A stretch of DNA of 64,000 nucleotides, taken from the NCBI GenBank assembly GCA_963790805.1, contig CAWBPL010000002.1, positions 448,696 through 512,695 of the forward strand, given 5' to 3'. The position numbers were made by a program, and so were the translations under genes. This document shows positions 34,854 to 53,637 of the stretch, one piece after another (within the stretch, counting starts at the first letter, position 1; every line of letters starts with the position of its first letter). Origin of the DNA: Candidatus Gottesmanbacteria bacterium (lineage in GTDB: Bacteria > Patescibacteriota > Microgenomatia > UBA10105 > UBA927). The notes beneath the pieces are model-generated. The model had not been told where the DNA came from. It searched no databases and saw only the letters and a list, made by a program, of their open reading frames with translations.

Positions 34854-34887
34854 AGTTTAGCTTGCGCTGATGAGTGAAGCGACGAAG

Positions 34888-34959
34888 TGCCAGCGGCAGG
34901 AATCGGACCTGCTGCCCATGCCTTATGAAGACACTGCTCTACCAATGAGCTACGCTGGC
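34888..34959 (-). tRNA. tRNA with CAT anticodon (elongator Met or lysidine-modified Ile2); CCA not encoded
   Basis: The reverse complement folds by hand. Acceptor GCCAGCG/CGCTGGC. D arm GCTC-ATTGGTA-GAGC. Anticodon arm GTGTC-TTCATAA-GGCAT. Variable GGGCA. T arm GCAGG-TCCGATT-CCTGC. Discriminator A. 72 nt. Confidence 0.85.
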
Positions 34960-35184: not shown

Positions 35185-35254
35185 CGCGGGGTAGTGTAGA
35201 GTAGCACAGAAGGCTCATAATCTTCTAGACCAGGCGCGACTCCTGGCCCCGCAA
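35185..35254 (+). tRNA. non-canonical tRNA-like gene, anticodon CAT (possibly an element-borne or hybrid tRNA)
   Basis: Hand fold. Acceptor CGCGGGG/CCCCGCA (C1xA72 mismatch plus 6 bp). D stem GTGT/GCAC with loop AGAGTA (no GG). Anticodon arm GAAGG-CTCATAA-TCTTC. Variable TAGA. T arm CCAGG-CGCGACT-CCTGG (no TTC). Discriminator A. 70 nt. Confidence 0.5.
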
Positions 35255-36970
35255 CAAGCTAGGAATTGAAGCAAACATTTCGTCCGTTTGAGCCGTTGGA
35301 ATGCTCTGTTTATCGGGTGCGAGTAATTCCTGAAGTATTGGTGCTTCTTTTTTCATCTTCTTGATCACAATAAACGGCAACGGGCTTTCAATACGCAGTG
35401 TTTTATCTTGTAATTTTAGGTGCGAACCTAACTTTGATAATATCTCCCGTTTCACTCCGAGGTCGGGTTCTGCGAACCGCTCACGTGCATGAGCGGCAAA
35501 ATTGAATTTCTCGTTTATCTCGTCTGCGGCTTGGAGCATACGTTCGTCTATACTGCCCATCTGCTTCCCTAATCCTTTAATTTCAGCTTCCAGTTTGAGT
35601 TTCTGTTCCTTGAATTGTTCGTCAGATAACATGCTTCCATCACTATTGAGTGGTGAAATTTTGAGTTTGACGAGATTATCAAGTTCTTTCCGGGCGTCAG
35701 AGTGGGCACGAGTCACCGATTGTATTGCTTCCTCTCGGAAATCCCGCTCACCGTCATTCATTACATTGATTTGTCTGATAGACCAATCTACGAAGCACTG
35801 TGGTATTTCAAGAGATGAAATTTCAGCATCAATCTGCTTTTCAAATAGATCAAGTCGTATGCCTTTTTGTGTACACCGTAGGTCTTTCCGGCGTTTACAG
35901 CGATAGTAAATGTAATGCAGGATTTTTGGCTCTTTCATTTGGTCAATACGAGTTTTGCACTGTGGACACGCTTCTTTATTTTTCTTCGTTAAAGAAAACT
36001 TGAGCTTACAGGTACGGCAAATACACTGCCATTTCTCCTCTGCGGTGATCGTGGAGCCACAAAACCCGCATTTTAGCAGTGACGTATATGCCCACTCGTG
36101 ATTTTTGAGATGATATTTGCTTTTATGACCGAGTATTACCTGCACTTCTTCAAATAACTCATCACTGATGGCGGGTTCATGTTTTCCTTCGTGCCATTCT
36201 CCGCTCCCTTCGGGGTACTCAAATTTGCCTGTGTAGAAGGGATTGCCGAGGATTTTATAGATATTGCTGATAGACAACGGTCGCCCCCCCATTCGTTTTT
36301 GTTGCCTTGTCCTGTAGCCCCATTCCTTTTCCGCTAACCGGTGTATCTCAGTCACCGGCGTACCTTTTCGGAATAGCTCAAATATCCTTTGAATGAACGG
36401 GAGCCGTTCTGGATCGGTTAAAACACGCCTAAAACCGCTTTCCGTGCCTTTATCATTGAGATACCCCTGTGGTGCAACACCTGGACGCCACCCATCACGG
36501 CATTTTTTATCAAGACCACGTTTCACTACAATCGCCTTATCATCACTGTCTTTTTTGGATAATCCAAACTCCAAAGTTAGCATAAACTTATCTTCCGGCG
36601 TGTTGTGATATGTCCGGGATGGTGTACGGACTTCAAGCAATTTTCCCATATCAAACAGGTCAATAATTCGTCCGCCGTCAGTCATATTACGAGCTAATCG
36701 GTTAGGATGCCACGTGACTATCGCATTCGCTTCACCCTGTTCTATCCGCGTAATCATTGATTCAAAAATAGGACGTCCTTTTACATGGGCTGATTGTGAT
36801 TCATCTAACACTTCGATAACTCGCAGATTATGGCGTGATTTCAGACCTTCAAGGATATAAAGTTGCTCCGGGAGAGAAGCAGCCTGCCGTTCCTTGTTAT
36901 CCTCGCTAGACTTGCGGGCATATCGAAGTATTTTAGTTGAACAGTTTTGAATCCATAATAAAGCCCCCAC
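35225..36970 (-). CDS. large serine recombinase (resolvase/invertase N-domain + recombinase domain + zinc ribbon + coiled coil)
   Basis: N-terminus ILRYARKSSEDN (catalytic Ser region), NAIVTWHPNRLARN, and a Cys-rich zinc-ribbon block CGFCGSTITAEEKWQCICRTCK...CPQCK. The 3' end overlaps the tRNA-like gene by 30 nt on the opposite strand. Confidence 0.85.
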   Translation of the reverse strand: MGALLWIQNCSTKILRYARKSSEDNKERQAASLPEQLYILEGLKSRHNLRVIEVLDESQSAHVKGRPIFESMITRIEQGEANAIVTWHPNRLARNMTDGGRIIDLFDMGKLLEVRTPSRTYHNTPEDKFMLTLEFGLSKKDSDDKAIVVKRGLDKKCRDGWRPGVAPQGYLNDKGTESGFRRVLTDPERLPFIQRIFELFRKGTPVTEIHRLAEKEWGYRTRQQKRMGGRPLSISNIYKILGNPFYTGKFEYPEGSGEWHEGKHEPAISDELFEEVQVILGHKSKYHLKNHEWAYTSLLKCGFCGSTITAEEKWQCICRTCKLKFSLTKKNKEACPQCKTRIDQMKEPKILHYIYYRCKRRKDLRCTQKGIRLDLFEKQIDAEISSLEIPQCFVDWSIRQINVMNDGERDFREEAIQSVTRAHSDARKELDNLVKLKISPLNSDGSMLSDEQFKEQKLKLEAEIKGLGKQMGSIDERMLQAADEINEKFNFAAHARERFAEPDLGVKREILSKLGSHLKLQDKTLRIESPLPFIVIKKMKKEAPILQELLAPDKQSIPTAQTDEMFASIPSLLRGQESRLV

Positions 36971-40672: not shown

Positions 40673-40775
40673 TTTAATTTTAATAGTGAGCCTATTATAT
40701 CAGGAAAAACGACACGGTGGCTTCCAAAGTTATTCTATTTCTGGTATCGTACAGGGGACAATTTAATTGCCTAAA

Positions 40776-40880
40776 CTACCGAAAGGTAGCATGGCAGAAA
40801 AACCGGTAAAGAGCTGTAAGCTCTCGTCAGAGCATCTTTACCGGTCATGCAAGGAAACTTGCATGGGTGACGCAAGTCAT
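40776..40880 (+). ncRNA. candidate structured RNA leader (four consecutive hairpins, three with GNRA tetraloops)
   Basis: CTACC-GAAA-GGTAG (40776-40789). 11-bp helix ACCGGTAAAGA...TCTTTACCGGT (40802-40845). CATGCAAG-GAAA-CTTGCATG (40846-40865). TGAC-GCAA-GTCA (40868-40879). The GNRA loops exist only on the + strand. Confidence 0.45.
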
Positions 40881-40900
40881 CACTGGCGGGAGCTTTCTGT

Positions 40901-47774: not shown

Positions 47775-47803
47775 TTGACAAAAGAGCCTATAAATGCGAT
47801 ACT
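47775..47803 (+). promoter_or_regulatory. sigma70-like promoter of the T-box leader
   Basis: TTGACA (47775-47780), 17-nt spacer, GATACT (47798-47803). Confidence 0.6.
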
Positions 47804-47809
47804 TTTACC

Positions 47810-48127
47810 CTAAGTGAATACAGGCGATGTGGAGTGAGGATGGAGCCCACTTCATGAAAGAAATGTCGAACTTTCATGACGCTGACCCTAATCAGGTACG
47901 GAGGCGAAACCGTAAAAAGTCTGTCAACATATGTCGCAAGTAGCGGAGTATGTCATAAACAAGACTTCTTACATGACGTGCTTCCTTAAAGGGAAGCATT
48001 TTTTGTAGGCAAGTGAAACCCTCTTTCGTTGAAACTACGGAGGGTAAACAAGGTGGCACCGCCCTCAATAAGAGAGCCCTTGTAAGTCTTTCAGGACTTT
48101 TTCTGGGAGATTTGCAAGGGTTTTTTT
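47810..48127 (+). promoter_or_regulatory. T-box riboswitch leader (transcription attenuation type)
   Basis: T-box sequence AACAAGGTGGCACCGCC (48047-48063). Antiterminator: A1 CAAGG/CCTTG, 7-nt bulge TGGCACC, A2 GCCCTC/GAGAGC. Competing 13-bp terminator CCCTTGTAAGTCT...AGATTTGCAAGGG (48077-48120) plus T7. Stem III ACCCTC/GAGGGT. Upstream GCGATG/AGTGA elements. Confidence 0.8.
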
Positions 48128-48222
48128 ATAGCGATAGTTCAGTTGGCAGAACGCGTGTGCGGAATGCGTGAGCGCTACGCGGTTGGGGCTTGAATCGCCG
48201 GTTCGATTCCGGCCCCGCCTGC
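48128..48222 (+). ncRNA. tRNA-like element of unclear status (canonical D arm and T arm, no foldable acceptor or anticodon arm)
   Basis: TA-GTTC-AGTTGGCA-GAAC (48135-48152) and GCCGG-TTCGATT-CCGGC (48197-48213), followed by CCCGCCT-G. The 44 nt between them gave no 5-7-5 anticodon arm with U33, and no AGGCGGG 5' strand is present. Confidence 0.35.
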
Positions 48223-48257
48223 ACGGTAAAAATTATTTGATACAATAAGGAGGTTGT

Positions 48258-50123
48258 ATGAAAGATCGAATAGTTCAAAAATATAGTGAAGAGTTAACGA
48301 AACTCGGAATTCATCACGAGGTATTTGAGCATCCGCAACTTATTTCTGTTGAAAAAGTGCAAAAGTATCTGGGGTATGGAATGGATGATTCTGCGGCAAC
48401 GCTGGTGATGAAAGCAGGGGATCGATTTGTCGCAATTATTCGTAGGGGAGACACGAAGCTCGATAGCGAAAAAGTCAAAAAATTATTAAACGTTACGACG
48501 CTTCGTATGGCGACGGAAGAAGAATTTTCCGATGTTACGGGTGTGCCAAGTGGAGCGGCGAGTGTGTATATTCCCAATATTCCAACGTTTATTGATAAGC
48601 GGATTTTTGAAAAACAATACATTAATGCAGGATCCGGCAGTCTTTTATATACCATTCGATATAAAGCAGAAGATTTAAAAAAGATTCCAGGGATAACCGT
48701 TGTTAATGTAACAAACGCAGATAACGCTTTAACCCCTGTAGAAAAATTAGAGGTGCCTAAGGGTAAACGGCTCTATTCTGCTATTACGCCCAGTGGTGAT
48801 GGGACACTCCATATCGGCAACTATCTCGGTGCGGTGCGGCAGTTTATTGAACTTGCAAAATACAATGAGTGTTTTTTTCAGCTGGCGACCATTCACGGAC
48901 TCACAACCATTCAGGATCAAAAGCAACTGGCTGGAAACATCGAGCGGTTAACTCTCAACGAACTGGCGCTTCTTGGAGAAAATCCTAATATTTATTTCTG
49001 TTATCAATCAGATATTCCCTATCACACCGAGCTCCAATCGATTCTCAATAATGTGACACCCTTGGGACTGCTTAAGCGTGCGCATGCGTATAAAGACAAA
49101 CTTGGTAAAGATGTCATGGAAGATGATATAAACGTCGGTTTGTTTAGTTATCCTATGCTCATGGCTGCTGACATATTGATTTATAAAGCCACGCTCGTGC
49201 CGGTGGGGAGGGATCAAAAACAGCACGTGGAAATAACGAGAGATATAGCAGAGCGGTTTAATAGGATTTATAAGAAGAAAGTATTTCCGCTTCCTGATCC
49301 TTATATACCCGAAGAAGTAGCGGTCATTCTCGGTACCGATGGGCAGCGAAAAATGAGTAAAACGCTTGGAAACATCATAAGTATTTTTGAAGATGAGGAA
49401 GTTATTAGAAAACAGGTAAACGGAACGTTTACCGATCCGACCCGGAAACACGTGACTGATCCTGGTCATGTTGAGGGAAACATGGTATTCACCTACCTCG
49501 ACTTTTTTGGTGAAAAGGAAAAAGTCAGTGAACTCAAGGAGCTCTATAAAGCAGGTAAAGTAAGCGACGTCGAAGTGAAAAAATATTTATTCGAAGCACT
49601 TATGAAGACATTCGCTCCCGCGAGGGCCCGGTATGCGGATCTCGTTGCCAACCCTGAAAAAGTGAAAAAGATTTTAGATCGGGGACGTGGGCACGCACTA
49701 GAGGTAGCATCCAAGACGATGGCAGAAGTGCGTGAGGCGGTCGGGTTTACGAATCGATATTCATTGGGACAACCATCAACGCAGGTTACTGGTAATAGCA
49801 AAATCACAATCGATGATTTTGCCAAAGTAGATGTACGGGTAGGAAAAGTTGAGGCAGCGGAAAATGTCGAAAAGAGCGAAAAACTCATCCGGCTGCATGT
49901 GGATTTCGGGAGTGGCGGCAAGCGGATTATTTTTACCGGCGTCCGGCAGTTTGGCTATACGGCGGAATATTTTACCGGTAAACAATTTTTCTTTGTGTTT
50001 AACCTTGAGCCGCGAAAGATGATGGGGGAGGAAAGTCAGGGAATGATTGTTGCGGTTGATGGCTCTCAAAAACCCATCTTCTTGTCAGGTGAAGGAATGC
50101 CGCTGGGGGCACGAATTCGATAA
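48258..50123 (+). CDS. trpS: tryptophan--tRNA ligase fused to an N-terminal YbaK/ProX-like editing domain and a C-terminal Trbp111/EMAPII-like tRNA-binding domain
   Basis: aa 1-165: ATLVMKAGDRFVAIIRRGDTKLDSEKVKKLL...GVPSGAASVY (YbaK-type). Core: ITPSGDGTLHIGNYLGA (HIGH), VPVGRDQKQHVEITRDIAERFN, KMSKTLGN. C-terminus: IDDFAKVDVRVGKVEAAENVEKSEKLIRLHVDFG (OB-fold tRNA-binding). AGGAGG RBS at 48249-48254. Confidence 0.8.
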   Translation: MKDRIVQKYSEELTKLGIHHEVFEHPQLISVEKVQKYLGYGMDDSAATLVMKAGDRFVAIIRRGDTKLDSEKVKKLLNVTTLRMATEEEFSDVTGVPSGAASVYIPNIPTFIDKRIFEKQYINAGSGSLLYTIRYKAEDLKKIPGITVVNVTNADNALTPVEKLEVPKGKRLYSAITPSGDGTLHIGNYLGAVRQFIELAKYNECFFQLATIHGLTTIQDQKQLAGNIERLTLNELALLGENPNIYFCYQSDIPYHTELQSILNNVTPLGLLKRAHAYKDKLGKDVMEDDINVGLFSYPMLMAADILIYKATLVPVGRDQKQHVEITRDIAERFNRIYKKKVFPLPDPYIPEEVAVILGTDGQRKMSKTLGNIISIFEDEEVIRKQVNGTFTDPTRKHVTDPGHVEGNMVFTYLDFFGEKEKVSELKELYKAGKVSDVEVKKYLFEALMKTFAPARARYADLVANPEKVKKILDRGRGHALEVASKTMAEVREAVGFTNRYSLGQPSTQVTGNSKITIDDFAKVDVRVGKVEAAENVEKSEKLIRLHVDFGSGGKRIIFTGVRQFGYTAEYFTGKQFFFVFNLEPRKMMGEESQGMIVAVDGSQKPIFLSGEGMPLGARIR

Positions 50124-50187
50124 TTGACTATTCAGCCTTTGTACCGTAATCTAGTGCTAGAAGGGAAATCATTTCCCATCTTATTCT

Positions 50188-51030
50188 ATGGATTCCGTTC
50201 CTTCATCAGTTGTGCCTCCAGCGAGCTCTTCCACCTCATCGCCGCCGGCTGATATGCCGACGCCTCCTGTCCCCCCCACACCGTCGGATTCTTTGGTGGT
50301 CCCCCCAGAACCCCCTCCGGCGCCCGCTGAAGCAACAAATCAACAAAGCTTTTCAGTATCACGTGGAGGAAAAAGAATTGGCAAAAAGCCGTCAGTCGGA
50401 GTAATTCTCACGATTATCTTTCTTCTTTTTGTTACGTTACCCTTAACGGTCATGTTTGTGGGAAATAAAAATCAATCGACTGATGTGCGAAGTAGAGCGG
50501 CGTATGCCCTTGGTCACACCTGTGATCCTTCAGCCGGTTCGGATGGCGGATGCGGGTCAGGAGAAGGATGTTCCTGTAGAAACGGTTCGTGTGCGTGTGG
50601 TCTTACCGGCGGACAGCAACCGTGTTATCACACGATATGTCCAGTAAACTATTCGTGTAATGGTTCGGGCGATGGTTCATATTGCAGTCCGAATACTCCG
50701 ACATCTCCTAACAATCCTCCGTCAGGCAGCACATCAACTCCGACTCCCACGTCCACTACAGCGCCCTCTTGTCCGGCGGTACAAGTGTATAGAAATAATG
50801 TCTTAGTAACTGATTTAAACACCTTGGCGGTCGGGGATACTATAACGGTTGTAATACCGGGTGGCACCGCAACACAGGCGCAGGTTCGTCTCAATGGCGG
50901 AGGGTGGAATGTTCAAACGACAAAAGATGCAAACGGAAATTTTGACATCACCTTCCCGATTTTAGTAAACGCCGGTGTTACCACAGGTACCATCGAATAT
51001 CAGGTGTATATCAATGGAACGTGGTATTAA
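50188..51030 (+). CDS. hypothetical Pro-rich / TM / Cys-rich surface protein
   Basis: PPADMPTPPVPPTPSDSLVVPPEPPPAP, TM (VGVILTIIFLLFVTLPLTVMFV), then a Cys-rich segment. Confidence 0.45.
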   Translation: MDSVPSSVVPPASSSTSSPPADMPTPPVPPTPSDSLVVPPEPPPAPAEATNQQSFSVSRGGKRIGKKPSVGVILTIIFLLFVTLPLTVMFVGNKNQSTDVRSRAAYALGHTCDPSAGSDGGCGSGEGCSCRNGSCACGLTGGQQPCYHTICPVNYSCNGSGDGSYCSPNTPTSPNNPPSGSTSTPTPTSTTAPSCPAVQVYRNNVLVTDLNTLAVGDTITVVIPGGTATQAQVRLNGGGWNVQTTKDANGNFDITFPILVNAGVTTGTIEYQVYINGTWY

Positions 51031-51041
51031 GCTATTTGTGG

Positions 51042-51437
51042 TTAGCTATTGAGGTATTGTTTCACTTTATTCACTACCTGATCCGGGGTCTGATCGCTTT
51101 TGATCATATAGCCTCTGGCCCCGAGTGCTATGGCCCGAACGACTGCGGAGTCATGATCCATATTGGATAAAATGACGATAGATTTGTTGGGTTTCATTGG
51201 TGGCGTTTCCTCTTTAAGTTTTTGAAGAATCTTTAAGCCGTCAATTTTTGGAAGCATAATATCCAAAAGCACCAGATCATAGCCTCCTGCAAACATTTTT
51301 TGATATCCTTCTTCGCCATCTGCCGCATGGTCAACGTCTAACCCTTCAGATTCGAGAATTTCGATATAGAGATCACGCAGGAATTGATCGTCTTCAACGA
51401 TAAGGATTTTTTTTGCGGGTATGGGTTGATCAGTCAT
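51042..51437 (-). CDS. single-domain response regulator (CheY-like receiver)
   Basis: ILIVEDDQFLRD..., phospho-acceptor region DLVLLDIMLPKIDG, conserved K in GARGYMIKS. Confidence 0.85.
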   Translation of the reverse strand: MTDQPIPAKKILIVEDDQFLRDLYIEILESEGLDVDHAADGEEGYQKMFAGGYDLVLLDIMLPKIDGLKILQKLKEETPPMKPNKSIVILSNMDHDSAVVRAIALGARGYMIKSDQTPDQVVNKVKQYLNS

Positions 51438-51489
51438 GGAGCTATTGTTAGTGTAGCGTACTTATTTTGTAGTGTAAAGGAATATACAG

Positions 51490-53637
51490 TTAACCAACCG
51501 GTAACGTAACGGTAAACGTTGATCCCCTCCCGAGCGTTGATTGAACGGATATCGTTCCGCCATGAAGCTCGACATATTGTTTTGAAATATATAATCCCAG
51601 TCCCGATCCGCTTCCGGTGATAGTCACATAAGAGCCTTCAAGTCGACCGAATTTGGAAAATAATTTCGGCATATCATCGGGATGAATTCCTCGGCCAGTA
51701 TCGATGACAGAAAATTCTATGAATTTATCCCTGGGTATAATCCGTAGGGTTACCACTTGATTCATCGGAGTAAATTTAAAGGCGTTTCCGATAAGGTTTT
51801 CCAATACCTGATGGATTTTTTCCCGATCCATCGATATGAGAGGTAATACGTCGGGGACTTCGAGAGACCATGAAAGGTGTAGTTCGGTGGCTTTCGCCTG
51901 AAATTCGTTTTCTATATCACGGCCGAGCTGTACTACATCAACCGGTTCTTTTTTGAGTTTTACCTTGCCGCTTTCGATTCTTGATATATCAAGCATTTCA
52001 TTGACAAGATGAATGAGGCGTTCCGTAGAAATATAGACGCGGTTAAGATATTCTTTTGCTTTAGGTTCAAGAGGGCCAGCTTTATCGTTTAACACAAGCC
52101 ACGCATAGCTTTTGATTGCGGTCATGGGCGTGCGAAGCTCGTGGGAGGCAAGTGACACAAACTCGTCTTTGAGTTTATCGACAAGCTCGAGTCGTTCGTT
52201 GACTGTTTTGAGTTCGCTGGTTGCCTTGTCGATTTCCTCTTTTAAGGTGACATTAAATCTTCGAATTTCCTCAAACGCAAGCGCATTTTCAATGGCAACT
52301 GCGACTTCGGGAGTAAGTATTTCAATTACGTCTAGATCCTGAACAGAATATATATCACCGGACGATTTTTCTCCGAGAATGAGAATTCCAACTTGTTTGC
52401 CTTCTGTTCGAAGATGGGCCACCACTGAAACATGGAGTTTGCGCAATATATCTTTTTCCTGTCCTTCTTTTAATTCTTCAAACACCAGCATGTTTCTTGT
52501 TTGGCTGATGATTTTTATTTCTTCCTCGTCGAGAGTGGGCGGTGTTTCAAATCCTTCACTTTTTACGTCAGCAATAAGATCGTCTTCAAAAAGAATAAAG
52601 GCAGATTTTGTAATGCGAAGATGACTGTTTAATTCCTGAAGAACCCCATGGGTGACATCATCAAGGCGGAGCGTAAATGCCATGATTTTACTAAGATTTC
52701 CCAATAAATCATCGGTGTTATAGCGATTTTTGAAAAAAATTCTATCAGTGATTCGTTCCAGAAAACGTTGGAGCGGGTGAAATGAAAAACTTGCCGTAAT
52801 TGTGATAAGAGACAGAATGATAAATTGAGAAATTGTCAGATTGAGCTTGGCAAATTTATCGCCGATGGTAAATAAAAGCCCGATATACGCACTGATCACC
52901 AAAAAAAACAAAAGTGTGTACGAAGCGGTTCTTGCAACCAAAAACCGAACATCCATGAGCCGATGCTTGATGATTGCATATGAGGTGAGCCCGAGAAACG
53001 CGAGCGCATAGAGCGGGGCCAACGGTTCGAACGATAAATTATTGGCTACCATAACAGGGATAAGAACCGTAATCGTCAGAAGTCCGAGCATGGTAAGAAT
53101 ACCAAGCATGACATAGCGAAGTTGTTCTTTGACTATTCCCGTTGTTTGTCTCCATCGTTTTAGGAGTATATATATTGCACACACGCTGCAAAAAAGCGCA
53201 TAGAGCGCAAAAAGTCCCATACCCCAGCCGGGAACGGGTATTGCTTTGCCGCCTGTCGTATCGACCGCTATGAACGTAAAGGGCGAAACAGCAAGAGGAA
53301 GAAGTAAGATAGCAATAAAAAGAAGTACGGTAAGCGCCGATTTTTTTAAAGGAATCTTATCATTCGGGAGCGTGTGAGCAAGAAGAAAAAAAAGCGTTAC
53401 CTGCGGCACCGCAAAAAATATACTGAGTCTGCCCAAGAGGAGGCTGTAGCGAAAAAAAATAGGGACGACGCCGAGAATACTGACAATTAACCATATTGAG
53501 GTAATCCATGAAAGTGCGCTTAATAATTTATTGCTGGCGCTTTTGGGGTTGTTTTTTGTAACGATGATCGCAACAAATGAGTTAGCTCCAACGACAAAAG
53601 CGAGGATGATTAATTGTAGGGCAGTTAAGACATTCAT
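51490..53637 (-). CDS. sensor histidine kinase (polytopic N-terminus, GAF-like, HisKA, HATPase_c)
   Basis: About 8 N-terminal TM helices. H-box SHELRTPMTAI. N/G boxes NLIGNAFKFT, DTGRGI, GSGLGLYISK. Confidence 0.85.
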   Translation of the reverse strand: MNVLTALQLIILAFVVGANSFVAIIVTKNNPKSASNKLLSALSWITSIWLIVSILGVVPIFFRYSLLLGRLSIFFAVPQVTLFFLLAHTLPNDKIPLKKSALTVLLFIAILLLPLAVSPFTFIAVDTTGGKAIPVPGWGMGLFALYALFCSVCAIYILLKRWRQTTGIVKEQLRYVMLGILTMLGLLTITVLIPVMVANNLSFEPLAPLYALAFLGLTSYAIIKHRLMDVRFLVARTASYTLLFFLVISAYIGLLFTIGDKFAKLNLTISQFIILSLITITASFSFHPLQRFLERITDRIFFKNRYNTDDLLGNLSKIMAFTLRLDDVTHGVLQELNSHLRITKSAFILFEDDLIADVKSEGFETPPTLDEEEIKIISQTRNMLVFEELKEGQEKDILRKLHVSVVAHLRTEGKQVGILILGEKSSGDIYSVQDLDVIEILTPEVAVAIENALAFEEIRRFNVTLKEEIDKATSELKTVNERLELVDKLKDEFVSLASHELRTPMTAIKSYAWLVLNDKAGPLEPKAKEYLNRVYISTERLIHLVNEMLDISRIESGKVKLKKEPVDVVQLGRDIENEFQAKATELHLSWSLEVPDVLPLISMDREKIHQVLENLIGNAFKFTPMNQVVTLRIIPRDKFIEFSVIDTGRGIHPDDMPKLFSKFGRLEGSYVTITGSGSGLGLYISKQYVELHGGTISVQSTLGRGSTFTVTLPVG

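Follow-up and report, generated by a model that had tools for sequence, protein, structure and literature searches.

What is the origin, and what is the role, of a tRNA-like sequence lying immediately upstream of a synthetase gene? The question is raised by a 64,000-nt stretch of DNA from Candidatus Gottesmanbacteria bacterium (assembly GCA_963790805.1, contig CAWBPL010000002.1, positions 448,696 to 512,695 of the forward strand), which was analysed as a whole and is called the window below. Between the terminator of a tryptophan-specific T-box leader and the start codon of trpS, the gene for tryptophanyl-tRNA synthetase (TrpRS), the window carries a 95-nt element (48128-48222, plus strand) in which an earlier, sequence-only reading had noticed a D arm and a T arm resembling those of tRNA-Trp. 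A decayed tRNA-Trp gene, a processing signal and a tRNA mimic had been offered as explanations. The comparison with related loci points to the first of them: the element is quite probably a pseudogene, a decayed copy of a tRNA-Trp(CCA) gene inside the trpS 5´ untranslated region (UTR) that would be transcribed by T-box read-through.

Layout and authenticity of the element

The sequence details described for the element by the sequence-only reading were all recovered: ATAGCGA at its 5´ end, the D arm TAGTTCAGTTGGCAGAAC (48135-48152), a 44-nt middle (48153-48196), the hairpin TGCGT-GAGCGCT-ACGCG (48165-48181), the T arm GCCGGTTCGATTCCGGC (48197-48213) and the 3´ end CCCGCCT-G. In terms of a tRNA gene, and from the plus strand, the element is divided as follows (the disrupted core according to alignment A1).

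48128..48134 (+): remnant of the 5´ acceptor strand, ATAGCGA, ancestrally AGGCGGG; pairing with 48214-48220 lost
48135..48158 (+): U8-A9, the D arm, G26 and the anticodon stem's 5´ strand, all intact (TAGTTCAGTTGGCAGAAC G CGTGT)
48159..48191 (+): disrupted core, with GCGGAAT for the anticodon loop CUCCAAA, GCGTG for ACACG and a 21-nt insertion, AGCGCTACGCGGTTGGGGCTT
48192..48213 (+): remnant of the variable loop, GAATC, and intact T arm, GCCGG-TTCGATT-CCGGC
48214..48222 (+): 3´ acceptor strand CCCGCCT (48214-48220), discriminator G73 (48221), then C

The independent Logan assembly of run ERR11594402 shows no differences across 47892-51623; therefore, the element is no assembly artefact.

Loss of the cloverleaf

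The Rfam tRNA model (RF00005) matches the element with 21.6 bits, under the cut-off of 29. The match spans model positions 8-63, from the D arm to the T arm, leaving the acceptor unaligned and placing a 35-nt insert where the anticodon hairpin belongs. The conserved tertiary nucleotides of the D and T arms (U8, A14, G18, G19, A21 and the T loop TTCRANY) are all present. As had been claimed, ATAGCGA cannot form an acceptor stem: it pairs with CCCGCCT at 2/7 positions, and no 7-bp stem closes a cloverleaf. The anticodon arm failed in the same way, with GCGGAAT at the position of the loop and an insert of 29-35 nt required here by the tRNA models. The middle (48153-48196), including the core at 48159-48191, contains neither a CCA anticodon nor a 7-nt loop with U33, which bears out the earlier description.

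No tRNA was reported at the element by ARAGORN in the default, intron (-i) or pseudogene (-ps) modes, and the tmRNA mode gave nothing there, so that the search proposed earlier for a missed canonical fold produced no confident tRNA. Permissive runs (70-80% thresholds, introns allowed) returned contradictory folds only, namely Asn with a 5-nt 'intron', Val, Tyr across the terminator and Leu across the trpS start, and these were rejected as noise. An identity as tmRNA or as a member of another Rfam family was likewise rejected: the other matches overlapping the element at E <=10 are tmRNA_permuted on the T arm (11.8 bits, E = 5.5) and a chance-level match to Plastid-ycf2 on the minus strand (14.3 bits, E = 8.6).

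These results bear on the idea that the element still yields a working molecule after processing, as a functional tRNA or tRNA-like gene of non-canonical build, for example with an atypical acceptor or with a short intervening sequence in the anticodon region. The D arm, T arm and G73 of the element are perfect, and one report (PMC13011429) describes Patescibacterial tRNA genes with group I introns that were missed by standard tools. Group I introns (RF00028) were also detected on the minus strand of two related Gottesmanbacteria loci (L012:410-615, 62 bits; L015:692-900, 53 bits), where they may lie inside tRNA genes. However, the 44-nt middle and the acceptor are as described above, the intron mode of ARAGORN was empty and its low-threshold calls disagreed (Asn, Val, Tyr). 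Furthermore, the insert of 21-34 nt is far too short for a group I intron, and no Rfam intron was found at the element. A working tRNA of this kind is very improbable and, as judged from its sequence, the element has lost the ability to work as a tRNA.

Homology to tRNA-Trp genes of related bacteria

About 60 related trpS loci (numbered with the prefix L) were fetched from genomes and metagenomes, and the TrpRS of the window groups with those of Microgenomates/Gottesmanbacteria-like candidate-phyla-radiation bacteria. A covariance model, R1, was built from 13 tRNA-Trp genes of these relatives (alignment A2). Across the 64-kb window, on both strands, R1 matches 48131-48218 with 27.1 bits (E ~3e-6), third after two real tRNA-Met genes and ahead of a next match of 9 bits. 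In the R1 alignment, the acceptor pairs of the element are non-canonical or deleted.

The correspondence can be followed block by block between the element and the tRNA-Trp gene of one relative, L087 (5´ acceptor strand, U8 through the D arm, G26, anticodon stem, loop and stem, insertion, variable loop, T arm, 3´ acceptor strand and discriminator).

L087: AGGCGGG / TAGTTCAGTTGGTAGAAC / G / CGTGT / CTCCAAA / ACACG / no insertion / AAATC / ACTGG TTCGATT CCAGT / CCCGCCT / G, then CC-T-ATG
Window: ATAGCGA / TAGTTCAGTTGGCAGAAC / G / CGTGT / GCGGAAT / GCGTG / AGCGCTACGCGGTTGGGGCTT / GAATC / GCCGG TTCGATT CCGGC / CCCGCCT / G, then CA

Of the 24 bases from U8 to the end of the anticodon stem's 5´ strand, 23 are identical to both L087 and L082. 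The T loop is also identical to those of L087 and L082, and the 3´ acceptor strand and G73 are identical to those of L087. The T stem differs by two fully compensated pairs from L087 and L082, and by one from L118. On the 5´ side, three lesions separate the acceptor strand from that of L082 (AGGCGGA), namely an added T, a G-to-A change and one missing G; when it is set against L087 (AGGCGGG) without gaps, 5/7 positions mismatch. A source for the insertion (duplication, inverted copy or mobile sequence) was sought in the window and in all fetched loci, where no match for the 21-34 nt was found; internal repeats did not exceed 5-6 nt.

Taken with its position behind a homologous T-box leader, described below, this blockwise identity makes the element a homologue of the T-box-linked tRNA-Trp gene of this clade. 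The homology and the synteny are established by the alignments and gene orders. The label 'orphan' used in the sequence-only reading was therefore misleading, as intact homologues are present in sister lineages, whereas its suggestion of a decayed tRNA-Trp gene gained strong support from the intact tRNA-Trp(CCA) genes at the same position. The degenerate element itself was not found in any of the ~60 loci by blastn, nhmmer or R1, which matched only true tRNA-Trp genes and the relics of L008 considered below.

The same comparison decides whether a G+C-rich 5´ UTR could carry two tRNA-like hairpins by chance. Short motifs like a D arm or a T arm do arise by chance, and the fold energy of the element is unremarkable. 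However, the score against R1, with the next non-tRNA match at 9 bits, the 23/24 bases and 3´ end shared with orthologous tRNA-Trp genes and, in relatives, the presence of a real tRNA-Trp in the corresponding place leave a resemblance far beyond chance, and coincidence can practically be discounted. A functional intron-containing tRNA and a chance resemblance are both effectively excluded.

The T-box leader upstream of the element

The DNA preceding the element contains the following features.

47775..47803 (+): promoter-like site, TTGACA-17 nt-GATACT, TG-extended, with 10/12 consensus matches
47822..48127 (+): Trp-specific T-box leader, divergent, with an ultrashort stem I (Rfam, nhmmer and motif comparison)
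48077..48127 (+): intrinsic terminator, a stem of ~20 bp (48077-48120) followed by a T-run (48121-48127), from a sequence scan

Sites of the type TTGAC-N17-TATACT are found at an equal distance upstream of the leaders of relatives. The leader of the window starts with a K-turn-like GGCGAUG (47823), followed by a hairpin whose terminal loop holds the specifier UGG (47841-47843) and then A (47844). UGG followed by A was present in the loop of the first hairpin in 14/14 full-length leaders examined, which represent 16 loci since L084-L086 have the same sequence. The specifier matches the genes found downstream (trpS, tRNA-Trp and trpB-like genes).

The 3´ part of the leader contains the T-box sequence AGGUGGCACCGC (48051-48062). 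The antiterminator is a 6-bp helix between ACAAGG (48048-48053) and CCTTGT (48078-48083), flanking a 7-nt UGGNANN bulge, which is UGGCACC (48054-48060) in the window. This helix covaries, with GCAAGG/CCTTGC, GTACGG/CCGTAC, GCAGGG/CCCTGC and TCAAGG/CCTTGA in relatives against ACAAGG/CCTTGT in the window, and its 3´ strand overlaps the 5´ strand of the terminator stem. The variable base of the bulge fits the discriminator, as UGGC or UGGU occurs with G73, and UGGU with A73 in L083; the G73 of the element matches the UGGC bulge of the T-box in the window.

The Rfam T-box model (RF00230) gave 29 bits (E = 1.9e-4) for the window and 41.5 bits for L083, under the cut-off of 93. The region of stem I is collapsed in the Rfam alignment, and neither the gathering score nor a full-length stem I with its distal elbow-docking platform was found. 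On the evidence of its sequence motifs and their covariation, the leader is a real, though divergent, T-box variant with an ultrashort stem I.

T-box and tRNA-Trp in relatives

Searches by nhmmer with the leader of the window (47800-48128) found ~20 distinct loci at E < 1e-6, and an intact tRNA-Trp(CCA) gene on the same strand lies 3´ of the homologous leader in ten of them. The D-like and T-like hairpins expected in homologous leaders were thus found there as parts of complete tRNAs. Spacing was taken from the end of the leader match, or from the terminator T-run, to the start of the tRNA, and coordinates cover leader and tRNA.

Spacing of ~5-25 nt: L087:296-605, L097:286-638, L112:1404-1703, L113:299-576, L007:1239-1527
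Spacing of ~100 nt: L118:639-974, L008:1141-1501
Spacing of ~440-550 nt: L082, L083, L002 (two tandem copies)

As spacers of ~5-25 nt are too short to house a promoter of their own, the simplest inference would be that the tRNA-Trp of these relatives is transcribed by read-through of the T-box. Other loci have protein genes directly after the T-box, with no tRNA (L084-86, L005, L009, L016, L017, L003). At L169, tRNA-Trp heads the operon and no T-box was detectable in the DNA obtained. Neither T-box nor tRNA was found in the little upstream DNA obtained for the trpS loci L081 and L168, nor right before trpS in L169. The closer trpS relatives P0002, P0008 and P0016, which have scant upstream DNA or a different upstream gene, were considered as candidates for the arrangement of the window (T-box, relic, trpS) and discarded, as it was not seen in them.

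A fixed junction follows the tRNA. The ATG of the next open reading frame (ORF) lies exactly 4 nt past the discriminator in 9/14 tRNA-Trp copies or relics of relatives, in the pattern N73-C-C/T-T-ATG and with no Shine-Dalgarno sequence. The nine junctions are given below.

L087:603-609
L097:636-642
L118:972-978
L007:1525-1531
L082:2290-2296
L083:1035-1041
L002:2191-2197
L001:398-404
L008:1562-1568

The ORFs that begin at these junctions belong to four families (a racemase, a 130-133-aa ORF, a 293-aa ORF and a small Trp-containing ORF). This fixed spacing suggests that leaderless mRNAs could be generated by the 3´ processing of the tRNA. The junction has been lost in the window.

The small ORF encodes 26 aa in L007:1529-1609 and L118:976-1056 (M.YTFWKS.GREYWRN..P.YYV.YY), with two Trp and many Tyr codons, and its relatives are found in L016 (~1513-1620), L009 (~1514) and L008 (1566-1625). 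It sits just upstream of a gene for a 436-aa PALP-family (TrpB-like) protein and, from its composition, may act as a leader peptide that senses Trp or else encode a small protein. Directly 3´ of the T-box terminator, a long conserved hairpin (GATGGYTGCTTRGCGAG ... CTTAGCARCC-ATCAATCC) is present in L010:1061-1105, L012:2647-2700 and L083:522-575, with no adjacent tRNA.

Recurrent decay of tRNA-Trp copies

In L008, the covariance model detected an intact tRNA-Trp (1430-1501) between two decayed copies. The first (1322-1370) is a 5´ half situated immediately after the T-box terminator, and the second (1507-1563) is a 3´ part whose anticodon loop is without CUCC and whose T arm and 3´ acceptor strand are intact. 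Both pieces resemble the L097-type gene, and it looks as if an older copy of tRNA-Trp had been split or replaced by a newer one. In L002, two tRNA-Trp(CCA) copies lie in tandem; the first (1980-2054) has C33 for the universal U33, an 8-nt 5´ acceptor region and an Rfam score of 43 bits, and may be on its way to decay. Judged from these copies, duplication and loss of tRNA-Trp at the trpS/T-box locus is a feature of the lineage, and decay of the kind seen in the window has recurred in at least one relative, as established by the comparison of copies within L008.

A proposed course from T-box-linked tRNA gene to relic

The leader most similar to that of the window belongs to L082 (nhmmer E = 1.8e-39), where the order is T-box, two small ORFs, tRNA-Trp, a racemase-family gene and trpS. 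In the window, the small ORFs and the racemase gene are absent and the relic adjoins the terminator. On the 3´ side of trpS, the synteny continues with minus-strand genes for a response regulator and a histidine kinase, as in L083 and L084.

The following course can be proposed from these gene orders. In the ancestor, a tRNA-Trp gene would have stood directly 3´ of the Trp T-box, transcribed through riboswitch read-through and heading a trp-related operon that ended in trpS. The genes between the tRNA and trpS, of the kind still represented by the racemase-family gene in L082, would then have been lost in the genome of the window. Small lesions would have broken the 5´ acceptor strand, new sequence would have replaced the anticodon loop and the anticodon stem's 3´ strand, and 21 nt would have been inserted, so that the tRNA became inactive; the 3´ acceptor strand, G73 and both the D and T arms would have stayed nearly unchanged. 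The resulting relic could support neither aminoacylation nor decoding. It would now probably be the functionless first ~95 nt of the trpS 5´ UTR, carried on the transcripts that read through the T-box in response to uncharged tRNA-Trp. The co-transcription with the T-box, the order of the events and the lack of a residual function are what we infer from the arrangement of these loci, and a working tRNA-Trp is presumably encoded elsewhere in the 1.22-Mb genome.

Several observations weigh against simple decay. No other tRNA-Trp was found within the 64-kb window by ARAGORN or R1. The damage is uneven, with 3 events in the 7-nt 5´ acceptor strand and a fully rewritten anticodon loop, against only ~1 change in ~50 nt of the elbow (D and T arms) and 3´ acceptor strand. 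In addition, the inserted or rewritten segment is G+C-rich and partly complementary to the T stem and 3´ acceptor strand, with which it forms the predicted hairpin 48179-48222. Such a distribution of damage would not obviously result from uniform neutral decay; it would fit a recent death by a few discrete events or a continued constraint on the elbow and T-arm hairpin.

A continued constraint is what would be expected of a tRNA-derived module that has been reused, with the elbow, or a minihelix formed by 48179-48222, recognized by RNase P/RNase Z or by the Trbp111-like domain of TrpRS. In the first case, cleavage would separate the trpS mRNA from its T-box leader; in the second, TrpRS would regulate its own synthesis. 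The elbow nucleotides (U8, A14, G18, G19, A21, G26, C48, TTCGATT) are intact in an element whose decoding and charging parts are destroyed, TrpRS does have a tRNA_bind domain and, as the tRNA of relatives seems to act as punctuation (4-nt ATG spacing in 9/14), processing by RNase P/Z would plausibly be ancestral. However, the acceptor stem that RNase P and RNase Z require does not form, and the tRNA_bind domain is also present in relatives with a normal tRNA upstream of trpS or none.

As for the minihelix, the alternative helix that had been proposed between 48179-48188 and 48213-48222 is indeed a component of the predicted minimum-free-energy fold, but that fold is no more stable than those of shuffled sequences (z = -0.79, not significant). 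The predicted hairpin 48179-48222 is imperfect, takes the closing pair of the T stem and displaces the T arm, instead of stacking on it as had been supposed. No second genome with the same element was found among the fetched loci. In favour of reuse, the closest trpS relative has a perfect 9-bp hairpin (GCGGGCTGG/CCAGCCCGC; L081:50-80) at the place of the T-arm/acceptor hairpin of the relic (48179-48246 in the window) and just before a GTAAAAA...TGATACAAT box common to both. The local alignment of L081 and the window comprises the TGATACAAT promoter region only, and its score of 24 is marginal against a shuffle mean of 15.4 and maximum of 27.

A reused module recognized by these proteins is unlikely, and it is more doubtful still that the former tRNA-Trp gene now serves processing or autoregulation and thereby decouples the trpS mRNA from the T-box leader. 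A decayed tRNA-Trp(CCA) gene is the preferred explanation of the element.

trpS and other features of the window

Downstream of the relic, the window contains the following features.

48238..48253 (+): possible extended -10 box, TGATACAAT (48238-48246), and ribosome-binding site AAGGAGG (48247-48253), from sequence reading
48258..50123 (+): trpS, encoding a YbaK-like editing domain, the TrpRS core and a C-terminal tRNA_bind (Trbp111-like) domain, from domain matches

The start of trpS is 36 nt past the relic and has its own ribosome-binding site. The sequence GATACAAT is common to the window and the two closest trpS loci, L081 and L168, and TGATACAAT resembles the extended -10 boxes of the leader promoters. 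A consensus promoter scan made no call at TGATACAAT, where a -35 box is absent. By this resemblance, trpS may have an additional promoter of its own at TGATACAAT.

The TrpRS proteins of relatives show every combination of the YbaK-like, core and tRNA_bind domains, and L083 and L169 have a second TrpRS-family paralogue (367-376 aa) just upstream.

As for other RNA genes, ARAGORN found two tRNA-Met genes only in the 64-kb window. They form a divergent tRNA-Met(CAT) pair, at 34887-34959 (-) and 35185-35255 (+), the latter with the C1/A72 mismatch typical of initiator tRNA; the same pair is found near the trpS locus of L008 and L014. A full-length match to LOOT RNA (RF03000) is located at 40768-40881 (+), with 87.6 bits against a cut-off of 46.4.

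Comparison with known systems

Compared with bacterial tRNA-Trp(CCA) and RF00005, the element shares the D arm, G26, the 5´ strand of the anticodon stem, the T arm, the 3´ acceptor strand, G73 and the orthologous position. It differs by its unpaired 5´ acceptor strand, the rewritten anticodon loop and 3´ stem, the 21-nt insertion and the sub-threshold score. Bacterial tRNA pseudogenes are uncommon but not new, and in this respect the relic itself is ordinary, a tRNA pseudogene of a known kind.

In Firmicutes, trpS and trp operons are under T-box control, as in the trpS leader of Bacillus subtilis, and T-boxes with an ultrashort stem I are found upstream of actinobacterial ileS. The leader of the window has in common with the T-box trpS/trp leaders of Firmicutes the UGG specifier followed by a purine, the UGGN bulge complementary to the discriminator and CCA end, mutually exclusive antiterminator and terminator, and the control of a TrpRS gene. 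In contrast, stem I of this clade comprises only a K-turn-like start and one short hairpin whose terminal loop holds the specifier, the Rfam scores are 29-41 bits for a cut-off of 93, and a tRNA-Trp gene is often the first gene after the terminator.

The fixed junction resembles the tRNA punctuation of mitochondria, where RNase P and RNase Z release the flanking mRNAs, many of them leaderless, from polycistronic transcripts. The tRNA-Trp of relatives is likewise located between a non-coding leader and an ORF, with its AUG 4 nt past the discriminator in the 9/14 cases. Unlike the mitochondrial system, it belongs to a bacterial operon under a riboswitch, with processing proposed from the sequence; the window no longer has this junction, and its trpS is preceded by an ordinary ribosome-binding site.

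Finally, the thrS operator of Escherichia coli mimics the anticodon arm, the identity element, of its tRNA. Like the element, it is a tRNA-like fold within a synthetase gene's 5´ UTR. The anticodon of the element is destroyed, the element derives from a real tRNA gene and its binding by TrpRS is putative, in contrast to that operator.

A T-box that precedes its own ligand

The textbook T-box regulon consists of synthetases, biosynthesis genes and transporters. To our knowledge, a T-box placed before the gene of its own ligand tRNA is absent from the known descriptions of T-box regulons. In full-text literature searches, neither a tRNA gene preceded by a T-box nor bacterial leaderless mRNAs punctuated by tRNAs turned up. 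The paper describing TBDB contains downstream protein annotations only. The arrangement therefore appears to be unreported. What is new, as far as these sequences can tell, is the succession of T-box and tRNA-Trp, together with an ATG exactly 4 nt past the discriminator. Standard annotation misses the arrangement because the T-boxes of this clade escape the Rfam threshold, which makes it invisible there.

If the relic were indeed a reused module, it would be the final step of a system peculiar to this lineage, with a T-box driving the gene of its own ligand tRNA and this tRNA punctuating leaderless mRNAs. In the relatives that retain the tRNA, the fixed spacing suggests that tRNA processing makes leaderless mRNAs, as in mitochondria, and the riboswitch would govern the production of the very ligand that it senses, a feedback loop outside the textbook T-box regulon.

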